This document shows positions 2,391-17,969 of a stretch of DNA of 25,842 nt, in pieces. The first letter of the stretch is position 1. Every line of letters begins with the position of its first letter. The DNA is from a virus (lineage: Duplodnaviria > Heunggongvirae > Uroviricota > Caudoviricetes). The translations under genes were made by a program, and so were the position numbers. The notes under the pieces are model-generated. The model was not told where the DNA came from. It did no database searches and saw nothing but the letters and a program-made list of their open reading frames with translations. The DNA lies in IMG/VR virus record IMGVR_UViG_2609459774_000006, positions 1-25,842 of that record; one strand, 5' to 3'.

Positions 2391-3512
2391 TTAGTCATCA
2401 ACCGCGACTCCTGCACAATCATGGGCTATTGCCAGCAATTGTTTTTTAATTGCTTTAGCATCTACCGTCATATCTACTGTAGCAAAATGGATCTTATGTC
2501 CCTGAGTGACAACATACTCATTAAGCATATAGCCAACAGCTGGATGAAGTAGAAGACCAGCGGCATTGAGCGAAAGCGGATCCGTCTTGTTCTCCTGTGT
2601 TCTAAGGTAGGTATATAGCTGATAAATATAGCCATTACGTAGTGATTGCTCCCGATGCCAACCCTTTGTCAGAATCGAATTAAATTTGGTATCGATAATA
2701 ATACGCCGCTGGGCAGTCTTGTGTTCCAGAATAATGTCTGACTTCATTGTCGGGAAAATCTCTGCACTACCTGCACTTTGATCGCTCAACGCCCATTTCA
2801 GCTCTTTCCCTGCAGAGACCTGCCAAGTTGTTTTGGCAAGGTGTACACGATATAAGCCAGCGATACCTTTTTCAAATAGTCTTCTCATCCAGTAAAGGTT
2901 ATTTGAGGGCGCAGGTAAAAGATATTGGCCTTGATCTTCGGTCGGCATCAGCAGTTCAAAAGCTAATCGTGCGGCATCGACCATCGGTTTATCTGCGGCA
3001 TCATGGCGTCCAAAACGCCACACTGAGGGTAATTCGTGGGGGGCAGGATATCCTCCATTTATCCCCTCACGGCGAAGTGATATTGCCATAAAATGGCAAT
3101 CTGCCGCCAAAGACGGTTTCACTATGATTGAGGCCAGATGTTCTAACGCACAGCGAACATAGCGATTTCGGGGGGTGTTGAGGGTTATGTCTTGAAAATG
3201 GCAGGCAACCTGTCCCCGTTCCAGTAGTTGATGACTGGCAGTATACAGTATGTCAATGCGCCCTCTCACTCGGTTCAGGGCCGCATGACAAGTTTGGTAT
3301 CCCATATTTAAATTGCGACGTCGGCGCAGCGTAATCTCATGAAGGAGGATTGTCGCCACCAGGTCGGGGATTTCTGCTGGGTTATCTTCTACTGCGATCT
3401 GATTGCGCCCTAACTGACGAAACAGATCTGAAGCGTACAGCATCAGCATCCAGATATTTCGCATGGGAATACGTGATGCTGTATGTTGCTCACTCCCGGT
3501 TATTGTCGTCAT
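2391..3512 (-). CDS. McrC-like subunit of a McrBC-type (type IV, modification-dependent) restriction system, 373 aa
   Basis: Follows and overlaps the McrB-like gene by 4 bp; C-terminal PD-(D/E)xK-like segment (..ILEHKTAQRRIIIDTKF..). Confidence 0.7.
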   Translation of the reverse strand: MTTITGSEQHTASRIPMRNIWMLMLYASDLFRQLGRNQIAVEDNPAEIPDLVATILLHEITLRRRRNLNMGYQTCHAALNRVRGRIDILYTASHQLLERGQVACHFQDITLNTPRNRYVRCALEHLASIIVKPSLAADCHFMAISLRREGINGGYPAPHELPSVWRFGRHDAADKPMVDAARLAFELLMPTEDQGQYLLPAPSNNLYWMRRLFEKGIAGLYRVHLAKTTWQVSAGKELKWALSDQSAGSAEIFPTMKSDIILEHKTAQRRIIIDTKFNSILTKGWHREQSLRNGYIYQLYTYLRTQENKTDPLSLNAAGLLLHPAVGYMLNEYVVTQGHKIHFATVDMTVDAKAIKKQLLAIAHDCAGVAVDD

Positions 3513-5491
3513 TTTGCTAATAACACTTTTCTGGCTTCATCGACTTTATTTGGAGCATCGAACCAATATTCGGCGAGCAAAGGGCAGATCTCTGTATCAA
3601 CGACTTGTTCATACCAAGCCTGGGCATCGTTGATTTTTTGGCCGATAGCTGGGGTGACATAGCTGTGACCGATACAAAACTGTGGTCCTAAGGTAACATC
3701 TTTTGCCAGCATATCGTTAAGTACCGTCAGTCGAGATTTGATGAATGCTAACATGTCAAAATCAATTGCGTAATTATAATTTACCCAGTTTCTCCACGCG
3801 TCATTAAAAGCTGGCTTTAGATCGATAAACGCGAAACGACGGCGCAGCGCTAGGTCAAGTAGTGCGAGTGAGCGGTCTGCAATATTCATCGTACCGATGA
3901 TATATAGATTCTCAGGAATGTATATTTTTTCATCATCATTTTTAGGATAGGAAAGAGATAATGCCTCAGTCGGCGTGCGTTTATCTGCTTCCATCAACGT
4001 GAGTGTTTCACCGAAGATTTGCGCCGGATTGCCACGATTAATCTCTTCAATTATCACCACATATTTCGAGGTAGGATTATTGACTGCAGTTTTGATTGCA
4101 TTTACAAAAGGTCCATCAATTAGCGTCAATTGCCCTTCTTTACCTGGACGCCAGCCGCGAATAAAGTCTTCGTAAGAGAGGTTCGGGTGAAATTGCACCG
4201 CGCTAATACGCTCAGGTGCTTTTTCTCCCATCAAGCAGTACGCCAGACGTCGCGCTAACCAGGTTTTTCCAGTTCCGGGTGGTCCTTGTAATATCAGGTT
4301 TTTCTTGTCGATCAGGCGCTGAAGTGTGAGTTGGATCTTAGCCTCTTCCAAGAAACAGCCATCCTGCACCAGATGACTGATGTCATAAGGAACGTGAGTG
4401 AGTTTTGGCAACGGCGCACTCTCTTCGACAGTTTCCTCAGTTATCGTCTGGGATTCATTTTTCTCAAAATTCAGGTATTCATAATTTCCGGACTCAAGGG
4501 ACTTTAACTCATCATCATTGCATAGTTTCTGTAGATAAAAGTAGATTGAGCTTGTAACTGTTTTGCTCTCAGGATGCTCTACCTTGAATACGTCCAAGTA
4601 GTTTTCTTCCAACTCCGAAGCAGTGAAATAAGGGCCATTTTTTTTCAGGCATAACGCCTTAATTTTATTCAGTAAAGAGGCTTTCCACGTTCTATTTGCC
4701 ACCTCATCTTTAGACTGGCTAAGATCTGTATTCCACGCTGATAAAGAAAGTTCTGGGAAAGAATGAACCGGATAGTTTGGTTGGGTAAAGACCTCGTTCA
4801 GCGCCCGCATAAGACTCAGGTAACTTTGTCCACTACAGCGACCTTTTGCCCCGTTTTTAATGATCTTAATGTTTAACACTGTCTGAATGTAATACTGCGA
4901 CTGGCTATCTAAAGTAGGGTAGAACCAAGGACGGGTCCAGTACAACCCCATGGTGAGATTCCAACCGACATTCATTACTGTAGAAGCAATGTCATATGCG
5001 GCAGTGAAGTCTGCAGAGTTAGTATTCTGGTTATCCGCAAAGGTCATTGCCTGCGAGAACATTTCCCACAAGCATTCAATGTCATTAGGGTCGCGTGACT
5101 TTTCATAACCAAAGAACCAAGATTTTTGGTTATTCAACAGCGGGATTCCGGCAAAGGAGTCAGGAATCGGTTCGTTCACGCCCAACAAATTCGCTAGCTT
5201 GGCAGCAATAATTTTGCGATTGCTGTCGGTCAAGTTACGATTGAACAAGCCCATAGTAGTAAACGGACAAATGTCTTTTAAGGGAAAGATCTCTCCCATA
5301 ATAGATTTGTCCTGCAGATGGGACATTCCTTCCACACCTGAGGCAATTAGATGAATACCTTTGACTAATTCATCTCTACGATTTCGCCAAGTCAGTAACG
5401 CGTTGGCAAAAGCCTCATAAAAACTAGCCCAAGCAAATTTGCCATCATGTTCTGCTGTATCCACGGGAACTCCATTATACTTGTTGAGCAA
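3509..5491 (-). CDS. McrB-like AAA+ GTPase (660 aa) with a ~395-aa N-terminal region unlike canonical McrB
   Basis: Walker A LILQGPPGTGKTW and McrB-type signature IIGTMNIADRSLALLDLALRRRF in the C-terminal ~260 aa; N-terminal region not recognised. Confidence 0.8.
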   Translation of the reverse strand: MLNKYNGVPVDTAEHDGKFAWASFYEAFANALLTWRNRRDELVKGIHLIASGVEGMSHLQDKSIMGEIFPLKDICPFTTMGLFNRNLTDSNRKIIAAKLANLLGVNEPIPDSFAGIPLLNNQKSWFFGYEKSRDPNDIECLWEMFSQAMTFADNQNTNSADFTAAYDIASTVMNVGWNLTMGLYWTRPWFYPTLDSQSQYYIQTVLNIKIIKNGAKGRCSGQSYLSLMRALNEVFTQPNYPVHSFPELSLSAWNTDLSQSKDEVANRTWKASLLNKIKALCLKKNGPYFTASELEENYLDVFKVEHPESKTVTSSIYFYLQKLCNDDELKSLESGNYEYLNFEKNESQTITEETVEESAPLPKLTHVPYDISHLVQDGCFLEEAKIQLTLQRLIDKKNLILQGPPGTGKTWLARRLAYCLMGEKAPERISAVQFHPNLSYEDFIRGWRPGKEGQLTLIDGPFVNAIKTAVNNPTSKYVVIIEEINRGNPAQIFGETLTLMEADKRTPTEALSLSYPKNDDEKIYIPENLYIIGTMNIADRSLALLDLALRRRFAFIDLKPAFNDAWRNWVNYNYAIDFDMLAFIKSRLTVLNDMLAKDVTLGPQFCIGHSYVTPAIGQKINDAQAWYEQVVDTEICPLLAEYWFDAPNKVDEARKVLLAK

Positions 5492-7922: not shown

Positions 7923-8093
7923 CTATCGCTTCGAAGGTGGAGGCCAGACGGGGTTTACTGTATCAACACGGTTCAGCAATACCCGATATGTTTTCCATGC
8001 GGCCAGAAACGCTTTCTCTTCCTCCGTTGCGATCTCCAGCTCAGCAAGAGTCTGAACGTACCAGGAACAGCCTCCTTCAGGGCTTGAAGGATA
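7923..8093 (-). pseudogene. Tail fibre assembly (Tfa)-like C-terminal remnant, in frame with the upstream tail-fibre fragment beyond its TGA stop
   Basis: Translation ..[41 protein letters not shown] resembles the conserved Tfa C-terminal motif; no start codon. Confidence 0.35.
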
Positions 8094-8808
8094 TCAATGT
8101 TCGCTTCCTGTTAACTGCCGGACAAGTGCAACCAGTTCGCTTACCTGATTTTCCAGAGTGCTGATCCGGGTGCCTGCTGTTGCCAGATTTTGACGTAGCG
8201 TTGTGTTTTCCTCTTCCAGCGCGGTAACGCGATCATCTGTTTCACGGGCGACCTGAACAAGTAAACCCGTCACGGCGGAGTAGTCAACATTAAGATAGCG
8301 AGTTTCTTCGCGTAGCTCGTTGCCGTCAACGGTCGGACCTTGCAACTCTTCACCATAATGAGTAAACGATCCCACAGCTTCTGGTATCGCCTCCATTACT
8401 TCCTGTGCAATAACGCCAGCATAAGGCATCCCGTTTTCCTTGAGCGTGTAGGTGTATCCGTTCATTTTACGGATTGCTTTCGTCGCGTCGCTGATAACGA
8501 GAATATCGTCTTTAAGGTCGCGGTCTGATGACTGATTCAGCGTTGTGCAATTAATAGCGCCATTTACATCAAACAACTGGCCTGCTGACGTTTTTTGCGC
8601 ATAAAACAGATACGCAGCAGACGTTCCAACCTCAAAAACGTTTTGTCGAGTACTGGAACCCCACACCCTGACAGAAAACGGTAGTTCTGCATTACCTGAG
8701 TTCTGTAAAACAAAACGATTACCAGTCCCTGATTGCTTTGTAAGGGTTAAATCAACGGTTGAGTTAACCTCATTCTTGTTGATAGTGAGCGTCTGCGCTG
8801 TAGCCCCG
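8094..8808 (-). pseudogene. C-terminal fragment of a side tail fibre protein (no start; fused to lysozyme remnant)
   Basis: Frame stays open upstream of the 190-aa ORF to ~8808 (..[22 protein letters not shown]..); coiled-coil tail ..TALEEENTTLRQNLATAGTRISTLENQV. Confidence 0.55.
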
Positions 8809-9091
8809 TTATATCAACTTTTATGTACGGGTTAATTTGTCTGGCGACCGTGGCAAGGTCTTTATTCAGGAGGGCTTTGCATTCTGCTTTGGTATACGTT
8901 TTACCGAGCATGATGTCTTTTCCTGTATGCCCGTGACATACAGTCCATACACCAACAATATCTTTGTATGGTATGTAGCTGACACCTTCCAGACCATCGT
9001 TACCACTTGGGCCAGTGATTAACACTGATGCTATAGCAATTGCTCCGCCACCAATAGCAGCAGCAACGGCTTTTCGTAATGATGGAGGCAT
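8747..9091 (-). pseudogene. rrrD: Truncated phage lysozyme (RrrD-like N-terminal ~94 aa, then out-of-frame junk)
   Basis: [57 protein letters not shown]... matches lysozyme N-terminus; homology ends near 8812 where the tail-fibre frame begins. Confidence 0.75.
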
Positions 9092-9306
9092 TATTCACCT
9101 CTCGCAGCCTTGCGCTTATCTTCTTTAATCTTGAAATAAAGGTTTGTCAGGTACGTCAGCAGGCCAAATACCAGGCTACCCAGCACACCTATTGCTGCCC
9201 ACTGTGAGGGCGTGACTTTATCGAGCAGCTGTAAAAACCAGTAACCGGCACTACCTGCTGAGGTGCCATAGGCGACACCCGTTGTTAACTTATCCATGGA
9301 TTTCAT
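9091..9306 (-). CDS. essD: Class II holin (phage 21 S / EssD-like), ~71 aa; the ORF extends to 9351 with an upstream TTG/ATG
   Basis: [26 protein letters not shown]... with dual-start MKSM motif and TM segments; stop overlaps the lysozyme start (ATGA). Confidence 0.75.
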
Positions 9307-9894
9307 AACCCCACCTCGCAGACAAAGCGGGTGTAAATTGAGGGAATACAACGTATCGCAAAAAAGCAGAAACGTAACAGACTCGGAGTCAGTGAATAAC
9401 TCAGGTATTGAGTTATCAGCTAATATCGAGACTCAAAAAATGGAAAAACCAGCTCGACGGCGGGTTTAAGCTGTGTGACGAAGTAACCACTCTTAACAGC
9501 ATAACCAATTTTTTACGTACGTAAACCACTGAATGATATTTATGAGAATGCTACCGAGTGTTCAAAACACCACCACAAATACATAAGAAAACCTCAACAA
9601 ATAACCAATAAATAATTTCAGACGTTATTTTTAGTTGATTTAAATTAAACTGCCGAATTATAGAACCTCCATAAATAACAACCATTAATATAAATTAGCT
9701 AATAGGTTTATTTTTGTTCAAATAAGAGCCATAAATAGGTTTCGATAGAAAAAGTTCAGATAAAAATAGAGATCTACTTCACAAATTAAATGAGAAACTA
9801 AAACTTACATCTTGAAATAATCACATTGATTAGATGAATATTTATCGCGCAGTGACATCATTTTTTAATAATAGTTCAAAAAAAAGGGCTCACG

Positions 9895-10977
9895 ATGAAA
9901 AAATTAACAGTGGCAATTTCTGCTGTAGCTGCATCAGTACTGATGGCGATGTCTGCTCAGGCAGCTGAAATTTATAATAAAGACAGTAACAAGCTGGATC
10001 TATATGGGAAAGTTAATGCCAAGCACTACTTCTCCTCTAATGATGCAGATGATGGTGATACTACTTATGCCCGTCTTGGCTTCAAAGGTGAAACCCAAAT
10101 CAACGATCAACTGACTGGTTTCGGTCAGTGGGAATATGAATTCAAAGGCAACCGCGCTGAATCTCAAGGCTCCTCCAAAGACAAAACCCGTCTTGCATTT
10201 GCAGGCCTGAAATTCGGGGACTACGGCTCAATCGATTACGGCCGTAACTACGGTGTAGCATATGACATCGGTGCGTGGACTGACGTTCTGCCAGAATTCG
10301 GTGGCGATACCTGGACCCAAACAGATGTGTTCATGACTGGTCGCACCACTGGTGTTGCAACTTATCGTAACAACGACTTCTTTGGTCTGGTTGATGGTCT
10401 GAACTTTGCTGCTCAGTATCAGAGTAAAAATGACCGCACTGACGTAACTGAAGCTAATGGTGATGGTTTCGGTTTCTCCACTACTTATGAGTATGAAGGA
10501 TTCGGTGTAGGTGCAACCTATGCTAAATCTGACCGCACTAATAATCAGGTTATCTACGGTAACAACAGCCTGAATGCATCTGGTCAAAATGCTGAAGTAT
10601 GGGCAGCTGGTCTGAAATATGATGCGAACAACATCTATCTGGCTACCACCTATTCTGAAACCCAGAACATGACTGTTTTTGGTAATAACCATATTGCCAA
10701 CAAAGCACAAAACTTCGAAGTAGTTGCACAATATCAGTTCGACTTCGGTCTGCGTCCGTCCGTTGCTTACCTGCAATCTAAAGGAAAAGACTTGGGTGCG
10801 TGGGGTGATCAGGACCTGGTTGAATATATTGATGTAGGTGCAACCTATTACTTCAACAAAAATATGTCCACTTTTGTTGATTACAAAATCAACCTGATTG
10901 ATAAGAGCGATTTCACGAAAGCATCTGGCGTTGCTACCGATGATATCGTTGCTGTAGGTATGGTTTACCAGTTCTAA
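9895..10977 (+). CDS. nmpC: Outer-membrane porin of the OmpC/OmpF family (NmpC/OmpD-like), 360 aa, intact
   Basis: Signal peptide [23 protein letters not shown], porin-type beta-strand sequence ending ..VGMVYQF; SD aaaaaggg upstream. Confidence 0.85.
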
Positions 10978-10992
10978 TTTGATTACTAAAAG

Positions 10993-11048
10993 ATATGTTG
11001 CGGGAGGCTTTGCCTCCCCAACATATAAGTGGCTCCCTCAAGCCACTT
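10993..11048 (+). terminator. Two tandem stem-loops downstream of the porin gene (10993-11026 and 11027-11048)
   Basis: atatgttgcgggaggctttgcctccccaacatat and aagtggctccctcaagccactt are self-complementary; no strong T-run. Confidence 0.35.
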
Positions 11049-11114
11049 CCTTTAGGAGCACAACCTTGCTTCTAACTATATAAACCTTCTGTTATATATT
11101 ACCCTTTATTTTTG

Positions 11115-11148
11115 GGGGCGTTGCAACGCCCCATTTTTAATAATTTTT
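11115..11148 (+). terminator. Intrinsic terminator (GC stem ggggcgttgcaacgcccc followed by ATTTTTAATAATTTTT)
   Basis: Perfect 18-bp palindrome followed by T-rich run on the plus strand. Confidence 0.55.
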
Positions 11149-11165
11149 AGTAAACAATTGGCATA

Positions 11166-11549
11166 TTAATTAGAGTTATTAACAACGATATCCATCTCTA
11201 ACCGGATATCTAATGCCATTAACATCCCTTCAATTATGCCCTCAGCCTTCTGTAACCTTTTCCCGATATAACCATCAGAGCAGCAATGCTTACCTGCCAG
11301 TGACATGAATGTCATACCGACTACATAATAATCTACTAATAAATCGTGCAAATCGCTGTTGTTCTTTTTCAGACGGGCCATGCACCCGCAAATAATCATC
11401 GCGTCATCGTCACAACATTGCGGGCGAGATTTTACTTTTGAAGTAATTAATCCCTTAAAACCGGCGGCAATGGACGACCAGGTCACATCTTCATGATTAT
11501 TAGCCGCCCACGCTCCCCAACGCTCAAGAACCATCTGAATATCACGCAT
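11166..11549 (-). CDS. quuD: Late-gene antiterminator Q (QuuD-like), 127 aa
   Basis: [33 protein letters not shown]... matches recalled QuuD; the ORF track extends 5 codons upstream. Confidence 0.85.
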
Positions 11550-11634
11550 CAACTTACTCCACAAAAATCAGACCAGAACGCCAATTACAAGCAAAAATCA
11601 ACAAAACAGTATTAGTTGATTGTTATCTCTGACT

Positions 11635-11772
11635 TCATACTCCTGCTCCTGTCAGGGTTTTGGCGTAATTCTTCAGTATTCGGTAATCGGTCAAAACAGA
11701 ACCGGGGAAACGATATAAGCGCAGATGCCCCCAGCGGTGGCGAAGAAGTTCTGCCATATAAAACTCAAACAT
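11635..11772 (-). CDS. ylcG: YlcG-like small protein, 45 aa
   Basis: Hand translation [45 protein letters not shown]; start overlaps the rusA stop (TGATG). Confidence 0.55.
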   Translation of the reverse strand: MFEFYMAELLRHRWGHLRLYRFPGSVLTDYRILKNYAKTLTGAGV

Positions 11773-12134
11773 CATTCATTCCCCATTTCGGTGATGGTCA
11801 GTTCCAGCCTCCCACCTTTGGTAACAGGCATCTTCACAACGCGGTAATCAACGACCTGAGCATCATCCAGCCAGAAACCTGCTTTGGTGAGTGCGTCAAA
11901 AGCGGCTTTTTGCAGATTATCCAGGTCACGGCGACGGCGATCCGGCATGTGGCACTCAATACGGATTTTCACTGGCATAGCCAGGCCGATATCCAGCATT
12001 GCGTTTTTAATGATTCGGGTGACGTTATCGCGGTATGCCTGCCCTTCTGCGCTGATGTGCGTGCGCCCGCGATTATGGCGGTAATAGCGATTATTGCTCG
12101 GAGGCCAGGGTAATGTGATGCTGTAGGTATTCAC
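11772..12134 (-). CDS. rusA: Holliday junction resolvase RusA, 120 aa
   Basis: [36 protein letters not shown]... RusA family. Confidence 0.9.
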
Positions 12135-12421
12135 GCCTTAATAACCCCCTCTTTCAGCCAGATAACCTGTGTTCTCGCCATACCTTCCAGCGCGCATTCT
12201 TTTGCATATGCAGCATCGACAAAATGTGTGCGGCGGTCGATTTCGTCGTGGCAGGCAGAACATGCAATGGTGGCAATCAGGTCTGGCGGTTTGATACCGG
12301 TACCGCACAATCCAGCCAGCCGGATATGTGCCAGTACAGACGTTTCAGAATTGCCATTACATACGCCAGGGATTCTTACCTGGCATTCCCGACCACGCGC
12401 TGCTTTTCTCAAATCAGCCAT
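12131..12421 (-). CDS. ybcO: YbcO-like DUF1364 protein (nin-region putative nuclease), 96 aa
   Basis: [37 protein letters not shown]; ORF track extends upstream to 12460. Confidence 0.8.
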
Positions 12422-12584
12422 GATTCCTCCTTGCTGCCAGTCGCAACCATTTTTTATCAACCAGGCTGGCGGTATATCCGAGCAGAGTTGGTATTTCGGA
12501 TGGCTTCAGCTCAGGTTTACGCTTACGACGATTTGGTACTTTGTAGATGTGTCCGTTCATGACACGAATAAGCGGTGTAGCCAT
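12414..12584 (-). CDS. ninE: NinE-like protein, 56 aa
   Basis: [56 protein letters not shown]; start overlaps the ninB stop. Confidence 0.75.
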   Translation of the reverse strand: MATPLIRVMNGHIYKVPNRRKRKPELKPSEIPTLLGYTASLVDKKWLRLAARRNHG

Positions 12585-13039
12585 TACGCCTCCTGCTTGT
12601 CGCGCAGCAGCTGGAACTCGCAGCGCTGCGGAATAGTCAGGTGGCAACCAATATTCATCGCCCAGGCTTCAACCTTACACAGGAAGACATACATCTCTCC
12701 GGTATCAAGATCGGAGGTATGGCGTAACGACTGGATAGTGGTGATATCACCGGTTACGACATCAACCAGTTCTTTGGTTTCATAACCGAGATAAGTGTGT
12801 TTCAGAGCATCCTTCACCCACTCTGGCGTAGCGAAAGTCTTACCCCGGCTGATGAGGTATTCGCTGATTTCGGTGTACCACATGTGGCTTAAGCTATTTT
12901 GAGACAGGCTGCGCTTATCGCGCCATGGCTTCAGTACCATGCGGAAGCACTTGCCGTCCTCCAGATAAGGCTGGAGCTGCTGACCGATAGCGGTGAAGTT
13001 ACCGCGATGAAGTTTGATGCCGTCTTGTGGGAGGTTCAC
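12584..13039 (-). CDS. ninB: NinB/YbcN recombination protein, 151 aa
   Basis: [60 protein letters not shown]... NinB family. Confidence 0.85.
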
Positions 13040-13160
13040 GCTTCACCTCCGCAGAGGTCAAACGCTGGATGCAAAAAATCGCAGGTGCATTTCTGCATCT
13101 GTGGCGGGAGAAGAGAGTTTAGATTGTATGTGCGCATAAACGTCCCCGTTTAGCGCAGAA

Positions 13161-13299: not shown

Positions 13300-13929
13300 C
13301 TAAAACAAGGATAAACTTTGCCCTGCTCCAGGCGTTGGCTTTACAAATGTTACATCTTTAATTCTTTCGCCTAGGAGAAAAAATTTGTCCAAAGATAGCG
13401 ATGGTATTGTTGCAAACCCATCAGCCCCCTTTTTCCTAGCAACCCCTCTCACGTCCATGAGAATTCGCCCTAATACGTTCATACCATAATAGTTACCTTC
13501 TGGGTCTTTACTGGCACCCCAGAATTGGTCCTTCTCTGAGTGTTCCACGATGAAATGGTCGCCTGTACTGTCTAACAGCGCAAAGAACGTATCCCAGTTC
13601 TGGCATAATTTTACGCATACACACCACTTCATAATCGAAACTCGATTCTTATCCCATCCTGCGCGAGTTTTGGATTCAAACGATCTTGCGGTCTGCTTGG
13701 CTTCATAGGGGTTTCCTTGAGTAATGATGGCCTTTTGTATATCCGGATAGTCTGGATATCGGCATGCTTGGTAAAGGATTTCACTTGATTGAATAGGCAA
13801 CCCATTGATTAACAATGGATATCCTTTAGCCATGTTGGAAAGCCCCCCCCATTTTTCGGTGGTTTTCCTGAAGGAAACTGTGTTCTGTAGCGGATATAAT
13901 CTATAGCTCATACCACTCATTATACCCAT
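13300..13929 (-). CDS. NADAR (YbiA-like, DUF1768) domain protein, ~203-209 aa; alternative starts at 13929, 13920 and 13911
   Basis: Family hallmarks: ..GGLSNMAKGYPLLINGLPIQSSEILYQACRY.. and ..LLDSTGDHFIVEHSEKDQFWGASKDPEGNYYGMNVLGRILMDVRG; overlaps the upstream gene. Confidence 0.75.
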   Translation of the reverse strand: MGIMSGMSYRLYPLQNTVSFRKTTEKWGGLSNMAKGYPLLINGLPIQSSEILYQACRYPDYPDIQKAIITQGNPYEAKQTARSFESKTRAGWDKNRVSIMKWCVCVKLCQNWDTFFALLDSTGDHFIVEHSEKDQFWGASKDPEGNYYGMNVLGRILMDVRGVARKKGADGFATIPSLSLDKFFLLGERIKDVTFVKPTPGAGQSLSLF

Positions 13930-14932
13930 TCCGCTTCATTAGTGGATACCAGCAGTCCAATGCGGGAGCACCTGTTGGTTCATAATCTCCCCACCAAAAA
14001 GCCAGCGGCACATTATTCGGGCAATTTCGATAAGTAAATGTTGTTCCCCCAAAACCCAAACCGTCAAAAGTAGAAAAACCTAGAGGTTTGAGCACCTCAC
14101 TAGGGGTTTTCCTGTGCAGCAAGATATTAAAGCCGACTTTAGTAAGGATAGATTCGAAACGATCCCTTGAGGCTTCATTTCTAAAACTATCAGAAGAGGC
14201 ATATCCATCTCTGAATACGCCTTTGTAAAGCTCACACTCCTCGAATTTCTCGGGAGTATCTACACTATATTTCCTTGGCCAGAAAACACCTGATTGAGCA
14301 GAACGACTTTTTCGGTTTTCAACCTCACGCATACCACCATTCTTCACGTGTACAAAAATGTTTCTATCCTTAAAAATATATTCTAATCGTCTTTTTATAT
14401 TATAGTCAGATAACGTATGAGATGAAAAAAAATATACATTGAATTTAATATCTCTTAAATTAAATTTTAAAACAAAATTACTTATCGATTTGATGGCCTT
14501 TTCTCCTGAAAACGACACATCATCAATATATACAAATGTATCAAATTTATTTACTTCATCTTGAGTTGATGATTCAGTAACGATGTTAAATTTGATCCCT
14601 ACTGTTTCATAAAGAGATTTAAGCAATTCCTTCTGACTAGAACCTTTTTTTTGAATATCTAAAAAACCTGCATATCTGAAGAATTTCGCGTTCTTTTCAC
14701 TTCTTGCAATGGCTTTTATTTTTCGTTGATATTGACTTTCGGATAGGTAACCTGCATTAAGTAGATAAAGCGTTTCATCTAAGATAAATCGTCTATCCTC
14801 CACTGCAAATTGCTTAATCCATTTGCTGACATGTTCAGAGTTCATACCTTCAGCCGGAGGATATTTATAATCGCTCAACTTTTCAGCAATTTTATTGATT
14901 ACTTTTTCACCAGATAAAATATTCGAGGACAT
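13901..14932 (-). CDS. Unknown 343-aa protein with a PRPP-binding-loop-like motif (FVYIDDVSFSGEK); partner of the NADAR gene
   Basis: Long ORF with SD AAGGAA 8 nt before ATG; very AT-rich; motif hhhhDDxxxSG resembles type I phosphoribosyltransferase loop, but the fold is unverified. Confidence 0.6.
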   Translation of the reverse strand: MSSNILSGEKVINKIAEKLSDYKYPPAEGMNSEHVSKWIKQFAVEDRRFILDETLYLLNAGYLSESQYQRKIKAIARSEKNAKFFRYAGFLDIQKKGSSQKELLKSLYETVGIKFNIVTESSTQDEVNKFDTFVYIDDVSFSGEKAIKSISNFVLKFNLRDIKFNVYFFSSHTLSDYNIKRRLEYIFKDRNIFVHVKNGGMREVENRKSRSAQSGVFWPRKYSVDTPEKFEECELYKGVFRDGYASSDSFRNEASRDRFESILTKVGFNILLHRKTPSEVLKPLGFSTFDGLGFGGTTFTYRNCPNNVPLAFWWGDYEPTGAPALDCWYPLMKRNGYNEWYEL

Positions 14933-15088
14933 AAAAATTCCTTTTCACAACACAGAATCTAAAAAATAAGAATACTTTTATTTATTTCAAGTATAGACCG
15001 TATATTCAACTACTTTTTTTTATAGTAGGGAGATACCGATCACAATTTTTAGATATCTAATGTGATGGTTTAATAACCAGCAGTCTTA

Positions 15089-15108
15089 CGTGTTAATTCA
15101 CGTAAAAA
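15089..15108. promoter_or_regulatory. Palindrome TTACGTG-N6-CACGTAA in the AT-rich leader upstream of the 343-aa/NADAR cassette
   Basis: Perfect 7-bp inverted arms; no T-run in terminator configuration, so more likely an operator-type site. Confidence 0.3.
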
Positions 15109-15143
15109 AACTCATCAAACCTTCCTCTTTTCAGTTAATTCTT

Positions 15144-15728
15144 TTAAGAATAAACATCAGTAACTCGGGCCGGGCTTAATGCTACGGTTGGCGAATCACA
15201 CTTGTTTCCCCATACGTCGAAACCGTGGGAGGATTTACGCGCAAAGAGCTCAATACGTGGAAGATTACCCAGCAACCGAACCAGCATTTCACGCACGCAG
15301 TCTGGTTTACGTGAGTGCTCATGTCGCGGCGAGGTGTAGTGCTGGATGATCGAGGCGTCCTGCTGTGGTGCCCGCTTACCCTTTACCGCGAAAAGACAAT
15401 CTTCACGGTTCGCCCGGATCAGGTGTCCCATTCCCATCGCCGATTTGTCAGTTTGCTTCGGGTAGGTTTTATCCCAAGTGAAACCTTTCATTGTGATCAG
15501 GCGAAATCCCCAGGCATCGACGACTTTCATCGCCTCGAACGTTTGAGTTGGCAACCACCACATCGCCAGCTGGCAGCTTTCTGCAACCCGCTCCCTTACT
15601 GGCAGCCAGCAGATATCCTGCACCGTCATAACCAAGTATTTATGCCCGGTGCCACGCTTACCAGAATTGCATTTATCCTCGTACGTCCAGGGCGGATCCG
15701 CTTAGATCAACGTGTATTTCTTGTTCAT
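15144..15728 (-). pseudogene. MT-A70-type phage DNA N6-adenine methyltransferase interrupted by a TAA at codon 9
   Basis: Minus-strand reading MNKKYTLI*ADPPWTYEDKCNSGKRGTGHKYLVMTVQDICWLPV...; DPPW catalytic motif lies just after the stop (15702-15704). Confidence 0.7.
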
Positions 15729-15929: not shown

Positions 15930-16178
15930 GCAGGGTGGGCTAACGATATCCGCCTGATGCGTGAACGTGACGGACGTAACCACCGCGACATGTGCGTGCT
16001 GTTCCGCTGGGCATGCCAGGACAACTTCTGGTCCGGTAACGTGCTAAGTCCGGCCAAACTCCGCGACAAGTGGACCCAACTCGAAATCAACCGTAACAAG
16101 CAACAGGCTGGTGTGACTGCCAGCAAACCAAAACTCGACCTGACAAACACTGACTGGATTTACGGGGTGGAGCTATGA
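15930..16178 (+). pseudogene. O: C-terminal fragment of replication initiator O (about 81 aa), on the opposite strand to the O N-terminus
   Basis: ..ANDIRLMRERDGRNHRDMCVLFRWACQDNFWSGNVLSPAKLRDKWTQLEINRNKQQAGVTASKPKLDLTNTDWIYGVEL* matches the lambda O C-terminus. Confidence 0.6.
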
Positions 16179-16765
16179 AAAATATTGCCGCGCAGATGAT
16201 TAACTTTGACCGTGAGCAGATGCGTCGAATCGCCAACAACATGCCGGAACAATACGACGAAAAGCCGCAGGTGCAGCAGGTGGCGCAGATCATCAACGGT
16301 GTGTTCAGCCAGCTGCTTGCGACATTTCCGGCAAGCCTCGCGAACCGCGACCAGAACGAGCTGAACGAAATCCGCCGTCAGTGGGTTATGGCTTTCCGTG
16401 AAAATGGAATTACCACTATGGAGCAGGTTAACGCCGGAATGCGCGTGGCCCGCCGACAGGAGCGACCATTCCTGCCGTCGCCCGGCCAGTTCGTAGCGTG
16501 GTGTAAGCAGAGTGGCGGGGCGTTAGGTATCACTGTTGACCAAGTCATAACCGAATACTGGGATTGGCGTAATCGTTCCTTCGAATTCACTTCCAGCGAG
16601 CATTTCCCGTGGTCACAGCCTGTCATGTACCACATCTGCGTCGAACTGCGCCACCGTAGCATTGAGCGCCAGTTTCTGGCTGATGGCGCGATGGTCTTCA
16701 CCATGTCAAACATCCACTCTGCGGCGGTCAGGTCTTCTGCTGTCCCCCACCTGCTGCCGCTCTGA
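16175..16765 (+). pseudogene. P: N-terminal ~170 aa of replication protein P (helicase loader); the ORF tail after ~16680 is probably not P
   Basis: MKNIAAQMINFDREQMRRIANNMPEQYDEKPQVQQVAQIINGVFSQLLATFPASLANRDQNELNEIRRQW.. matches the lambda P N-terminus; start overlaps the O stop as in lambda. Confidence 0.65.
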
Positions 16766-17343
16766 ATTGCAGCATCTGGTTTCTCCACAGGAAGATCGTT
16801 TTCTGGTTGGTCAGAGGATTCGCCAGAATTCTCGGACGAAAAAGGTTTTATATTGTCTTTTGTTAGTTTGTCTTTTGTGTTTACCTGATTCGGGTAAACG
16901 CCTTTACCTGATTTAGGTAAACTTTTCTTACCTGATTCAGGTAAATTTACCTCTTTCAGGTAAACTTTATTTTTCTTACCCGATTCGGGTAATGTTGACC
17001 ATTCACTGACCACATTATTGATGCCGATATTCCGCCCGCTCTGAATAAAAATCCCACGCTTTACCAGAACACTTTTTGCAGCAGAACACTTGTGCGGCAA
17101 TATCCCGGTTAATTCGGAAAGTTGCTCGTTGCTAACCCAATCCAGTTTTTTATTAAAGCCATATGTTTTGCGCATGACAGCCAGAAAGACCAGAAGCTGG
17201 TGCTGTGTTAATCCGGCCAGCATCACAGCTTCCAGCAACTCATTTGCAATGCGCGTATAACCATCATCGAGATCTGCCACGCGCCGCTCCTTTTGTGCCA
17301 CATCCGGCACAGGAAAATTGAATATCTCAGCAGTGTTTGCCAT
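16680..17343 (-). pseudogene. O: N-terminal part of replication initiator O (iteron-binding domain plus linker); likely start at 17343, the ORF track extends to 17433
   Basis: MANTAEIFNFPVPDVAQKERRVADLDDGYTRIANELLEAVMLAGLTQHQLLVFLAVMRKTYGFNK.. with SD GGGAGG before the ATG at 17343; contains the iterons. Confidence 0.65.
16881..16992. repeat. Replication origin iterons: five copies of the palindromic ~18-bp unit TTACCTGATTCGGGTAAA, with an AT-rich stretch at 16835-16880
   Basis: Copies at 16881, 16904, 16928, 16947 and 16976 read directly from the sequence, inside the O N-terminal coding region. Confidence 0.75.
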
Positions 17344-17429
17344 AATTCCTCCCGCAATGAGTGTGTTACGATTTGCACCTGAAAGTCGGTTCTGTTCCCG
17401 CAGACCGACTTTCGCCATTTTTGAACCTG

Positions 17430-17969
17430 TCATATTGCCCCCAGCATGGTGGTGACCATCGCCATCAATGGACCAGCCAGATCCGGGTCCACTCGAAACA
17501 TCGACACAATGCCTTCACTCATCTCCTTCAGTTTCTGGTGGCGTGGTGCGTTGAGAATGACCGCCTGCTTTGCCTCACAGAGTTCCTTTTCCATTTCAGC
17601 CAGCCGAGCCATGAAGCTATCCTGCTCAACCAGGTGGCCGCGATATTCCAGCGGTAGTACCGCCAGAATTGCCGGGGTCAGTTCACGCACGTTATTTCGG
17701 TATTTTTCAGAATCGAATTTGTTATCGAGGAAGCGGAACAGCTTCTGGCGTGCACGGCTGACATCATCAGGGAAATCGATAGTGCCGCCGCCCTGCTCCC
17801 GATACTCATTCACAATGAGTGTGGCAACGACATCCTGATTATCTTCAGCCGACCAGGCGCGGACGGCATCACGGATTTTTTCGTGGCCTGGCACCTGTTT
17901 TGTTTGAGAACGATTTATCACCGCAGTCGGGCTAAATCCGCTAGTCTGTTGGTATGTAAGTGGTTGCAT
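17430..17969 (-). CDS. YdaT-like protein at the cII position, 179 aa
   Basis: Segments ..VATLIVNEYREQGGG.. and ..LTPAILAVLPLEYRGHLVEQ.. resemble Rac prophage YdaT; directly downstream of the cro-like gene. Confidence 0.6.
   Translation of the reverse strand: MQPLTYQQTSGFSPTAVINRSQTKQVPGHEKIRDAVRAWSAEDNQDVVATLIVNEYREQGGGTIDFPDDVSRARQKLFRFLDNKFDSEKYRNNVRELTPAILAVLPLEYRGHLVEQDSFMARLAEMEKELCEAKQAVILNAPRHQKLKEMSEGIVSMFRVDPDLAGPLMAMVTTMLGAI

Follow-up and report, generated by a model that had tools for sequence, protein, structure and literature searches.

A copy of the anti-phage operon DS-32 in a lambdoid prophage of Escherichia coli: a predicted phosphoribosyltransferase encoded beside a YbiA-type NADAR protein

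The stretch of DNA analysed here (25,842 nucleotides; positions 1 to 25,842 of IMG/VR virus record IMGVR_UViG_2609459774_000006; hereafter the window) carries a two-gene cassette that, judged by its sequence, is almost certainly an exact copy of DS-32, a two-gene anti-phage operon, in a lambdoid prophage (Table 1). In direct comparisons, the 343-amino acid (aa) product of the upstream gene was identical to WP_000097610.1 (DS-32A) at 343 of 343 residues, and the NADAR protein encoded downstream was identical to WP_032260665.1 (DS-32B) at 203 of 203 residues. Both proteins scored above the cutoffs of dedicated NCBIfam equivalog models: NF053875 (DS32_1_antiphage, phosphoribosyltransferase-like anti-phage protein; 312.7 bits, cutoff 250) and NF053876 (DS32_2_antiphage, NADAR family anti-phage protein; 257.4 bits, cutoff 240). 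RefSeq already uses "phosphoribosyltransferase-like anti-phage protein" and "NADAR family anti-phage protein" as product names. DS-32, listed as system "NADR", comes from the DefensePredictor study (bioRxiv 10.1101/2025.01.08.631726; Science 2026, PMC13092281), in which the unit spans 1,633 bp (NZ_QOXQ01000027.1:48629-50261), and the cassette agrees with it in length, gene order and overlap. A first-pass annotation, made from the sequence alone, had not recognised the pairing as a described system; it is in fact already known, having been predicted, cloned, shown to defend, named and provided with curated models.

In the published work, the DS-32 construct was driven in E. coli MG1655 by its native upstream region, and defence needs only the two genes (PMC13092281). 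The entries of Table S7 of that study give -log10 efficiency of plating (EOP) values of 3.70 (about 5,000-fold) for Bas26, 1.60 (about 40-fold) for RB69, 0.88 for SECphi18, 0.62 for T5 and 0 for Bas67, with smaller plaques for all five phages. Bas26 is a T5-like phage of the Demerecviridae, SECphi18 a Dhillonvirus and Bas67 a T7-like Berlinvirus. It is nearly certain that DS-32 shields its lysogen from unrelated lytic phages, with the strongest effect on T5-like ones. As a discovery the cassette has been overtaken by this publication, and its remaining interest lies in its chemistry.

DS-32A matched the Pfam family PRTase-CE (PF24390; E = 5.9e-39) over the entire 253-position model; the origin of this family name could not be traced in a literature search. 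The PADLOC model PRTase_III-A matched nearly the full length of the protein (E = 7.5e-11), and the DefensePredictor paper gives a retron III phosphoribosyltransferase (PRTase) as its best HHblits match (PMC13092281). An AlphaFold model based on a 55-sequence alignment (mean predicted local distance difference test score, pLDDT, 91.9; predicted template modelling score, pTM, 0.90) showed the type I PRTase fold, with a five-stranded parallel beta core that superimposes on known PRTases. The first-pass annotation had pointed out a motif resembling a loop that binds 5-phosphoribosyl 1-pyrophosphate (PRPP), and the family match, the fold and the conservation of the motif bear this out. The segment FVYIDDVSFSG comprises a hydrophobic strand, two acidic residues and a turn of small residues and Gly; among 55 homologs, down to 28% identity, D137 and D138 were invariant, and Y135, F141 and G143 were conserved in at least 90%. 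A segment resembling a pyrophosphate (PPi) loop was also invariant in this alignment (Q94, G97, S99 and Q100).

The C-terminal half of DS-32A contains a family signature, R302-N-C-P-N-N-V-P309, in which R302, N303, P305, N306 and P309 were invariant in the 55 homologs. The invariant block extends beyond it to L310, W313, W314, G315, W328, P330, L331 and R334. The signature matches PNNxP, the hallmark of retron type III-A PRTase effectors (PMC12746101). The C-terminal half has no counterpart in metabolic PRTases, and solved PRTases align to only about 135 of the 343 residues. DS-32A is a conflict-system PRTase and not a metabolic one, and its signature is likely to be an acceptor-site element. 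In ShosT, a PRTase-domain toxin, the equivalent DD pair contacts the PRPP ribose and a DD-to-AA change abolishes toxicity; ShosT binds PRPP in crystals and causes DNA damage upon expression, and no acceptor was found for it (PMC12961424). When the Retron-Eco11 effector is activated, PRPP falls by about 50%, and no other metabolite changes significantly (PMC12746101).

The second gene had been taken for a NADAR gene, which the Pfam match of its product supports (PF08719; E = 5.7e-23). The solved folds nearest to DS-32B were E. coli YbiA (2b3w; Foldseek E = 6e-8, 27% identity, TM-scores 0.62/0.73) and the Phytophthora NADAR in complex with ADP-ribose (ADPr) (8bau; TM-scores 0.66/0.70), and phmmer also matched it with E. 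coli YbiA (E = 2e-11). Its segment I-V-E123-H-S-E-K-D128-Q-F-W131-G aligns with V-E-H-T-E-N-D-A-Y-W-G of YbiA, and E44, E123, D128 and W131 were invariant among 42 DS-32B homologs. The catalytic position that distinguishes the subfamilies is Glu (E123) as in the YbiA subfamily, and neither Asp, as in DarT1-linked NADARs, nor His, as in T4-type phage NADARs. By these features DS-32B appears closest to YbiA rather than to the DarTG NADAR with which the DS-32 paper compares it. At the place of the conserved phosphate-contacting Lys (K50 in P. nicotianae, K95 in E. coli C7), Arg was found (R51), as in 105 of 109 clade members; the change is conservative, but may point to a different phosphate geometry. 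R51 was considered as a mark of PRTase-linked NADARs and rejected, since a subgroup that is not linked to PRTases also has Arg. NADARs hydrolyse ribosyl N-glycosidic bonds, including those of guanine-N2-ADPr and of riboflavin-pathway intermediates, and in YarT-YbiA a YbiA-family NADAR is a specific antitoxin. DS-32B scored just under the cutoff of the NCBIfam model for the riboflavin-intermediate N-glycosidase (70.4 bits, cutoff 73.7). The intermediates cleaved by YbiA are reportedly N-(5-phosphoribosyl)amino-pyrimidines, a finding ascribed to Frelin et al. 2015. An N-(5-phosphoribosyl) linkage is of the kind that a PRTase would make.

DS-32B ends in a flexible tail: in its structure model, the last 13 residues had pLDDT values of 46-55 and the remainder values above 90. 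The terminus of the tail, G-Q-S-L-S-L-F, corresponds to xLSLF with the Gln shifted by one residue, and thus only approximates the motif that binds the beta sliding clamp (Q-phi-x-L-F or the hexapeptide Q-phi-x-L-x-L, where phi is hydrophobic; consensus QL[S/D]LF), which is usually C-terminal and in which positions 1, 4 and 5 are the most important. The window protein and its close relatives end in GQSLSLF, GHTMELF or GQTMDLF, and distant relatives in QISLL, QNSLFD, QDSLFDV, QLNIFDV or QINMFDV; clamp-type peptides of exact form (QISLF, QNSLF, QDSLF, QLNIF, QPSLF) occur in many relatives. A pentapeptide-only pattern, Q..[LMIF]F, was discarded since it misses the closest relatives, whose form is hexapeptide-spaced, and a unified pattern was used instead ([QH]-x2-3-[LMIF]-[FL], at most 3 residues from the C-terminus). 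This motif, seen in tails of P0121-P0214, was present in 53 of 98 homolog tails, against 2.3% of shuffled tails (maximum 7%). Entropy was low only at positions -1, -2, -4 and -5/-6, the tail being otherwise variable. A NADAR subgroup (P0215-P0230) with the tail ...EVTRRIGDE lacks the motif; its genes are not adjacent to a PRTase gene but sit with Prok-E2/JAB/ThiF genes (locus L014). From these sequences, the tail peptide may bind the beta clamp (DnaN), a proposal that we hold at a little below an even chance. The conserved tail peptide is an observation absent from the DS-32 paper.

In more distant branches of the family, the NADAR is joined to DNA-recognition modules. At least six independent loci have the order hsdM, PRTase-CE, NADAR::HsdS, then RhuM, YhcG or nothing, and hsdR, i.e. 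a DS-32-like module built into a type I restriction-modification (R-M) system. The NADAR domain forms the N-terminus of the fusion, the sole other Pfam match of which is Methylase_S (HsdS), and no other gene examined in these operons encodes an HsdS-type domain. In all six fusions inspected the clamp-like peptide is kept internally, in a Pro/Ala-rich linker (QISLFD, QPSLFD, QGSLFG, QPSLFE, QAGLFG and QGSLFG), and it is therefore more than a C-terminal degron. In one further homolog the NADAR is fused to helix-hairpin-helix (HhH) domains. Neither the NADAR::HsdS nor the NADAR-HhH fusions are described in the DS-32 paper.

The DS-32 pair was found in 62 of 5,426 complete E. coli genomes, 19 times at no less than 99% identity and 43 times as a variant of about 78% identity. 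All 62 copies are chromosomal with the two genes always adjacent, and both variants occupy the same prophage slot, directly after replication gene P. Homologs of DS-32A down to about 26-30% identity occur in Enterobacterales, Vibrio, Myxococcota and metagenomes. When distant homologs were looked up singly, the NADAR gene lay immediately downstream on the same strand in six of six cases, and the one look-up that started from a NADAR (P0200) found PRTase-CE upstream. Among IMG/VR viral loci retrieved with a family-specific pattern, the PRTase gene was followed by the NADAR gene on the same strand in 37 of 37. Beyond phages, the pair occurs in P4-like and recombinase islands, integrative islands, R-M operons and defence neighbourhoods. 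A megablast search of the INPHARED phage collection with the cassette gave no match; at this sensitivity, the cassette occurs in prophages and IMG/VR contigs and not in deposited phage genomes. Related loci with listed genes showed no further conserved pathway genes beside the pair. The proposal that the two genes form one functional unit, and the co-occurrence analysis suggested for checking it, thus found agreement in every locus examined (37 of 37 viral, 7 of 7 other and 62 E. coli), and the two genes therefore form an obligate unit. This adjacency is an observation added beyond the DS-32 paper.

As a whole, we tentatively favour a mechanism, at somewhat less than even confidence, in which a phosphoribosyl adduct derived from PRPP is placed on DNA and removed by a DNA-tethered NADAR. 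DS-32A, as an active PRTase of type I fold, would transfer the 5-phosphoribosyl group of PRPP to a target nitrogen, forming an N-glycosidic bond. The target would most probably be a DNA nucleobase, in parallel to DarT1, which ADP-ribosylates guanine from NAD+. DS-32B, as a YbiA-type N-glycosidase, would cut this bond, free ribose-5-phosphate and keep the host genome clean, acting as a type IV-like enzymatic antidote. Its anchor on host DNA would be, in the E. coli protein, the flexible C-terminal Q-x-x-L-F clamp-like peptide and in other branches covalent fusion to HsdS or HhH domains. DNA made by a phage replisome would be left uncovered by the antidote, or the balance would tip towards the PRTase during infection; the adducts would then stop the phage from replicating, and the infected cell might be sacrificed in the process.

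An active PRTase is proposed because the PRPP and PPi-like loops are invariant, the fold is of type I and, among related toxins, ShosT binds PRPP and needs its DD pair while the activated Retron-Eco11 effector lowers PRPP. The opposing chemistry is proposed because NADARs cleave ribosyl N-glycosidic bonds, YbiA-family members can be antitoxins and DS-32B is closest to YbiA and keeps E44, E123, D128 and W131. DNA is suggested as the site of action by the HsdS and HhH fusions, by the clamp-like tail motif and by the absence of a linked PRTase from a motif-less NADAR subgroup, and also because ShosT damages DNA, its antitoxin binds DNA and, in E. coli K-12, ybiA shares a LexA-controlled operon with ybiB, the gene of a PRTase-like DNA-binding protein.

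Several points weigh against this mechanism. The DS-32 paper reports neither toxicity of DS-32A alone, rescue by DS-32B, mutants nor a mechanism (PMC13092281). An acceptor has been found for no defence PRTase studied so far, and ShosT bound none of the purines tested. The window motif, QSLSLF, is only near-canonical, its Gln being displaced by one residue; about 40% of the tails of homologs fall outside the unified pattern, and the peptide might just as well dock onto DS-32A. Fusion to HsdS may serve to guard the R-M enzyme and not to repair DNA. The replacement of the phosphate-binding/catalytic Lys by R51 means that the substrate may differ from all those characterised. Finally, T4, T7 and T3 are not among the affected phages that the entries of Table S7 list, while RB69 and Bas67 are, so the host range is not cleanly sorted by replisome type; lambda is likewise not listed there as affected (PMC13092281). 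The host range is only loosely compatible with the idea of protection by the host replisome.

Metabolic abortive infection is a rather unlikely alternative. Here DS-32A would place the phosphoribosyl group of PRPP on a small-molecule acceptor and DS-32B would hydrolyse the product and regenerate the acceptor. In variants, the pair would run a futile cycle from PRPP to ribose-5-phosphate and PPi, or released DS-32A alone would drain PRPP. Phage nucleotide and NAD synthesis would be starved, and the NADAR would serve as a co-effector or as a detoxifier of small molecules. Such a drain is consistent with the fall in PRPP upon activation of the homologous PRTase effector of Retron-Eco11 (PMC12746101), with the disturbance of purine metabolism by ShosT, with the riboflavin intermediates that are the sole physiological substrates assigned to YbiA, and with the near-cutoff score of DS-32B against the model of that N-glycosidase. 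Yet a halving of PRPP is modest, and the repeated NADAR fusions (HsdS, HhH) and the clamp-like peptide are left unexplained. T5-like and T-even phages draw on host DNA as a source of dNMPs, so that a shortage of PRPP should harm them less.

It is quite unlikely that DS-32B works mainly as a guard or sensor, with catalysis secondary. In this explanation it would bind DS-32A in an inactive state, with Q-x-S-L-F docking on the PRTase, and report on a machine attacked by phages (the beta clamp/replisome or a type I R-M enzyme), the perturbation of which would free the PRTase. The presence of the module inside hsd operons, with the NADAR fused to HsdS, resembles PrrC-EcoprrI, the classical arrangement in which PrrC is released from EcoprrI. 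DarG also neutralises DarT through direct binding, and the motif sits on a flexible tail and persists in fusions. Against this, the catalytic residues of the NADAR are invariant across the clade, which argues for selection on catalysis.

Phage counter-defence, which the first-pass annotation had put forward, is highly improbable and largely refuted by the published defence phenotype and the non-phage contexts. The pair would reverse DarT1 DNA ADP-ribosylation or rebuild NAD+ after depletion by Thoeris, SIR2 or similar systems. The cassette does occupy a phage accessory slot, all NADARs tested remove guanine-ADPr in vitro, and orphan phage NADARs are reported to neutralise DarTG1 (PMC11825919). 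However, the cassette alone restricts phages in a prophage-free host (PMC13092281), the pair also occurs outside phages in R-M operons and integrative islands, YbiA-type and T4 NADARs did not rescue DarT1 toxicity in vivo, and counter-defence needs no obligate toxin-like partner. DS-32A moreover has the type I PRTase fold and not that of a NadV-type nicotinamide PRTase (TIM-barrel catalytic domain); NAD+ salvage was rejected on account of this wrong PRTase class and the defence phenotype. That the pair makes a modified base or nucleotide marking prophage or host DNA is barely credible: PRTase and N-glycosidase chemistry and an adjacent MT-A70 methyltransferase gene would suit it, but that gene is a pseudogene here and missing from 78%-variant loci, and defence takes two genes only with no further pathway genes conserved nearby.

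If DNA phosphoribosylation is indeed what DS-32 performs, it would be a modification chemically distinct from ADP-ribosylation, self and non-self would be told apart by the replisome or DNA-bound machine present and not by DNA sequence or methylation, and the acceptor class would be identified for the defence PRTase toxins (ShosT, PsyrT and the retron III-A effectors). This boldest reading as a whole is unlikely: DS-32A would be the first enzyme to phosphoribosylate DNA nucleobases from PRPP, with the NADAR erasing the adduct only where it is tethered, to the beta clamp or to HsdS. The adjacency, the HsdS and HhH fusions and the clamp-like peptide turn a vague toxin-antitoxin-like label into falsifiable experiments.

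Regarding the locus itself, both open reading frames (ORFs) lie on the minus strand and overlap as the first-pass annotation had described. DS-32A starts with ATG. The longest form of the NADAR ORF encodes 209 aa, and the RefSeq start at the third Met gives 203 aa, so that the genes overlap by 29 or 11 nt, respectively. The overlap of stop and start, ATGAGCTATAG, reads as implying translational coupling inside one operon. The AT-rich composition and Shine-Dalgarno sequence noted earlier for the upstream gene were also found: the GC content is 35.6% in the DS-32A gene, 43.3% in the NADAR gene and 27.5% in the 211-bp upstream spacer, compared with 43.7% in the whole window and about 52% in flanking phage genes, and AAAGGA lies 7 nt ahead of the DS-32A ATG. 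The spacer contains a sigma-70-like site, TTGAAA-16-TATTTT, which is a weak match to the consensus, and a promoter/terminator scan round the cassette gave 6 promoter sites, all weak, against 6.0 in shuffles. A perfect palindrome with 7-bp arms (TTACGTG-AATTAA-CACGTAA) is also present in the spacer upstream of DS-32A; a T7 run precedes it on the coding strand, and the palindrome could act as an operator or fold into an RNA hairpin. The position between the replication genes and ninB had been called correctly, and can be refined: the cassette is downstream of O, P and an MT-A70 methyltransferase pseudogene and upstream of ybcN (NinB-like), ninE, ybcO, rusA and Q, the "ninB" being a YbcN-type member that scores under the Pfam NinB threshold.

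Table 1 Features of the DS-32 cassette and its surroundings (window positions, unless a locus is named)
Feature	Position	Strand	Basis or remark
DS-32A, PRTase-CE family, presumed toxin/effector	13901..14932	-	Pfam, NCBIfam, identity with WP_000097610.1
PRPP-binding loop TFVYIDDVSFSGEK, residues 131-144, acidic pair D137-D138	14498..14539	-	translation and alignment
Family signature R-N-C-P-N-N-V-P, residues 302-309, C-terminal half	14006..14029	-	translation and alignment
DS-32B, 203-aa YbiA-type NADAR N-glycosidase, presumed antidote	13300..13911 (longest ORF to 13929)	-	identity with WP_032260665.1, NF053876, Pfam
Q-S-L-S-L-F on disordered C-terminal tail of DS-32B	13303..13320	-	translation; beta-clamp-like, putative function
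Tail peptide of DS-32B for clamp comparison, PTPGAGQSLSLF			alongside relative form QISLFD
DS-32A stop/DS-32B start overlap ATGAGCTATAG	13901..13911	-	sequence and RefSeq coordinates in identical loci
AT-rich spacer, 27.5% GC, with Shine-Dalgarno sequence	14933..15143	-	presumed own promoter/regulatory region of cassette
Sigma-70-like site in spacer	14990 to 14963		
Palindrome in spacer	15086-15105		
HsdS-fusion loci	L006/7 (L006 2698-11020), L012 (2704-10799), L045, L047/48, L051, L052		
MT-A70 family DNA methyltransferase gene	15144-15728	-	internal stop
Inverted 757-bp segment	15918-16674		
Lambda-P-like ORF	16175-16765	+	
O ORF	16378-17433	-	
YdaT toxin-domain protein	17430-17969	-	
DGQHR-domain protein, 354 aa	22611-23675	+	
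McrC gene	2391-3464	-	
AAA-family ATPase gene	3509-5464	-	McrB-like by position
Late/nin region with large indels	7982-13150		

The window is E. coli chromosome with a lambdoid prophage and is 100% identical to strain E94 over 97% of its length. The MT-A70 gene directly upstream of DS-32 is interrupted by a stop codon after residue 8, and the annotations of E94 and TD225-C4 list it as a pseudogene; since prophages with the 78% variant lack it, it is no part of the DS-32 unit. A 757-bp segment that takes in the greater part of replication gene P as well as the 3' end of O is 100% identical to TD225-C4 and E94 but inverted, so that a lambda-P-like ORF lies on the plus strand and the O ORF gains an unrelated C-terminus. 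Inverted repeats flanking this segment were looked for and none of note was found; the inversion is either a genuine strain-specific event, by which the replication module of the prophage is disrupted, or an artefact of the assembly. The late/nin region shows large indels against the closest relatives: TD225-C4 lacks about 5.2 kb of the window, including the nin genes and Q, and E94 has additional material (IS2 and genes for tail fibre and lysis). DS-32 is preserved intact within what is a mosaic prophage remnant in decay.

Other genes of defence type are present in the window. The McrC gene and the AAA-family ATPase gene have as neighbours an icd fragment, the decayed gene of a recombinase and an acyltransferase gene; they constitute another restriction-type defence locus, where prophage and chromosome meet (e14-like icd integration site). 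The early-left region of the prophage, after exo/bet/gam, encodes the DGQHR-domain protein, whose DndB/DpdA-like family is often linked to defence by DNA modification, and a YdaT toxin-domain protein is encoded elsewhere in the window. In a 78%-variant prophage (strain 268.2; locus L002, 14208-15781), genes for a HipA-family kinase and a DUF3037 protein separate the repressor gene from the cell-division-inhibitor/gam genes; a HipA-family kinase and DUF3037 are among the defence domains newly validated in the DefensePredictor paper (PMC13092281). This prophage family may hold several defence cassettes of the HipA/DUF3037 and DS-32 sort.

Set beside known systems, the cassette shows no sequence-level difference from DS-32 and agrees with it in every testable feature (models, identity, and adjacency, order and strand of the genes). 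DarTG1 is likewise a two-gene defence module, in which a NADAR removes a ribosyl-type adduct placed by its partner transferase on DNA guanine. The DarTG1 partner, however, is an ADP-ribosyltransferase (ART) using NAD+, whereas DS-32A has a PRTase fold and presumably uses PRPP; the DS-32 authors found no similarity of DS-32A to DarT (PMC13092281). DarTG1 NADARs belong to the BC4488 subfamily with a catalytic Asp and an N-terminal DNA-binding extension, whereas DS-32B has Glu (E123) and a C-terminal extension. Identity with DarTG1 was thus rejected, there being no ART and a YbiA-type instead of a BC4488-type NADAR. YarT-YbiA of myxobacteria also employs a YbiA-family NADAR as a specific enzymatic antitoxin, but its toxin is a small ART, ybiA lies upstream (the reverse order) and no defence phenotype has been shown.

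The type III-A retron effector, exemplified by Retron-Eco11, shares with DS-32A the PRTase-CE lineage, the PRPP loop and the PNNxP signature, and this retron also defends against T-even and T5-type phages (PMC12746101). The Retron-Eco11 effector is restrained by reverse transcriptase (RT) and multicopy single-stranded DNA (msDNA) and has a C-terminal winged-helix domain and a CTP tail, whereas DS-32A lacks these and is paired with a NADAR: it is a single PRTase-CE domain that ends at residue 343. No RT gene was found in related loci with listed genes, and the neighbours in the window are the MT-A70 pseudogene and ybcN. A retron was rejected for want of RT or non-coding RNA context and of the winged-helix domain.

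ShosTA and the PsyrTA/RqlHI-type systems resemble DS-32 in having a PRTase-domain protein; their toxin has an essential PRPP-binding DD pair and a DNA-damage phenotype, and their antitoxin acts on or near DNA without binding the toxin. ShosTA differs in that ShosT combines an N-terminal pyrophosphatase domain with an APRT-like PRTase and the antitoxin is DprA-like; DS-32A and ShosT showed no similarity when solved structures were searched by sequence, and identity with ShosTA was rejected since neither the pyrophosphatase domain nor a DprA-like partner is present. The dinG-ybiB-ybiA operon of E. coli K-12 independently brings together a YbiA NADAR and a PRTase-like nucleic-acid-binding protein in a DNA-damage context, but in a chromosomal housekeeping/SOS setting and not as a mobile defence cassette; YbiB has a TrpD2-type fold that is unrelated to type I PRTases. 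Among ShosT, PsyrT, the retron III-A effector and DS-32A, only the last has a partner with a defined bond specificity (ribosyl N-glycosidase), and DS-32 is therefore the most tractable entry to the acceptor question of defence PRTases.

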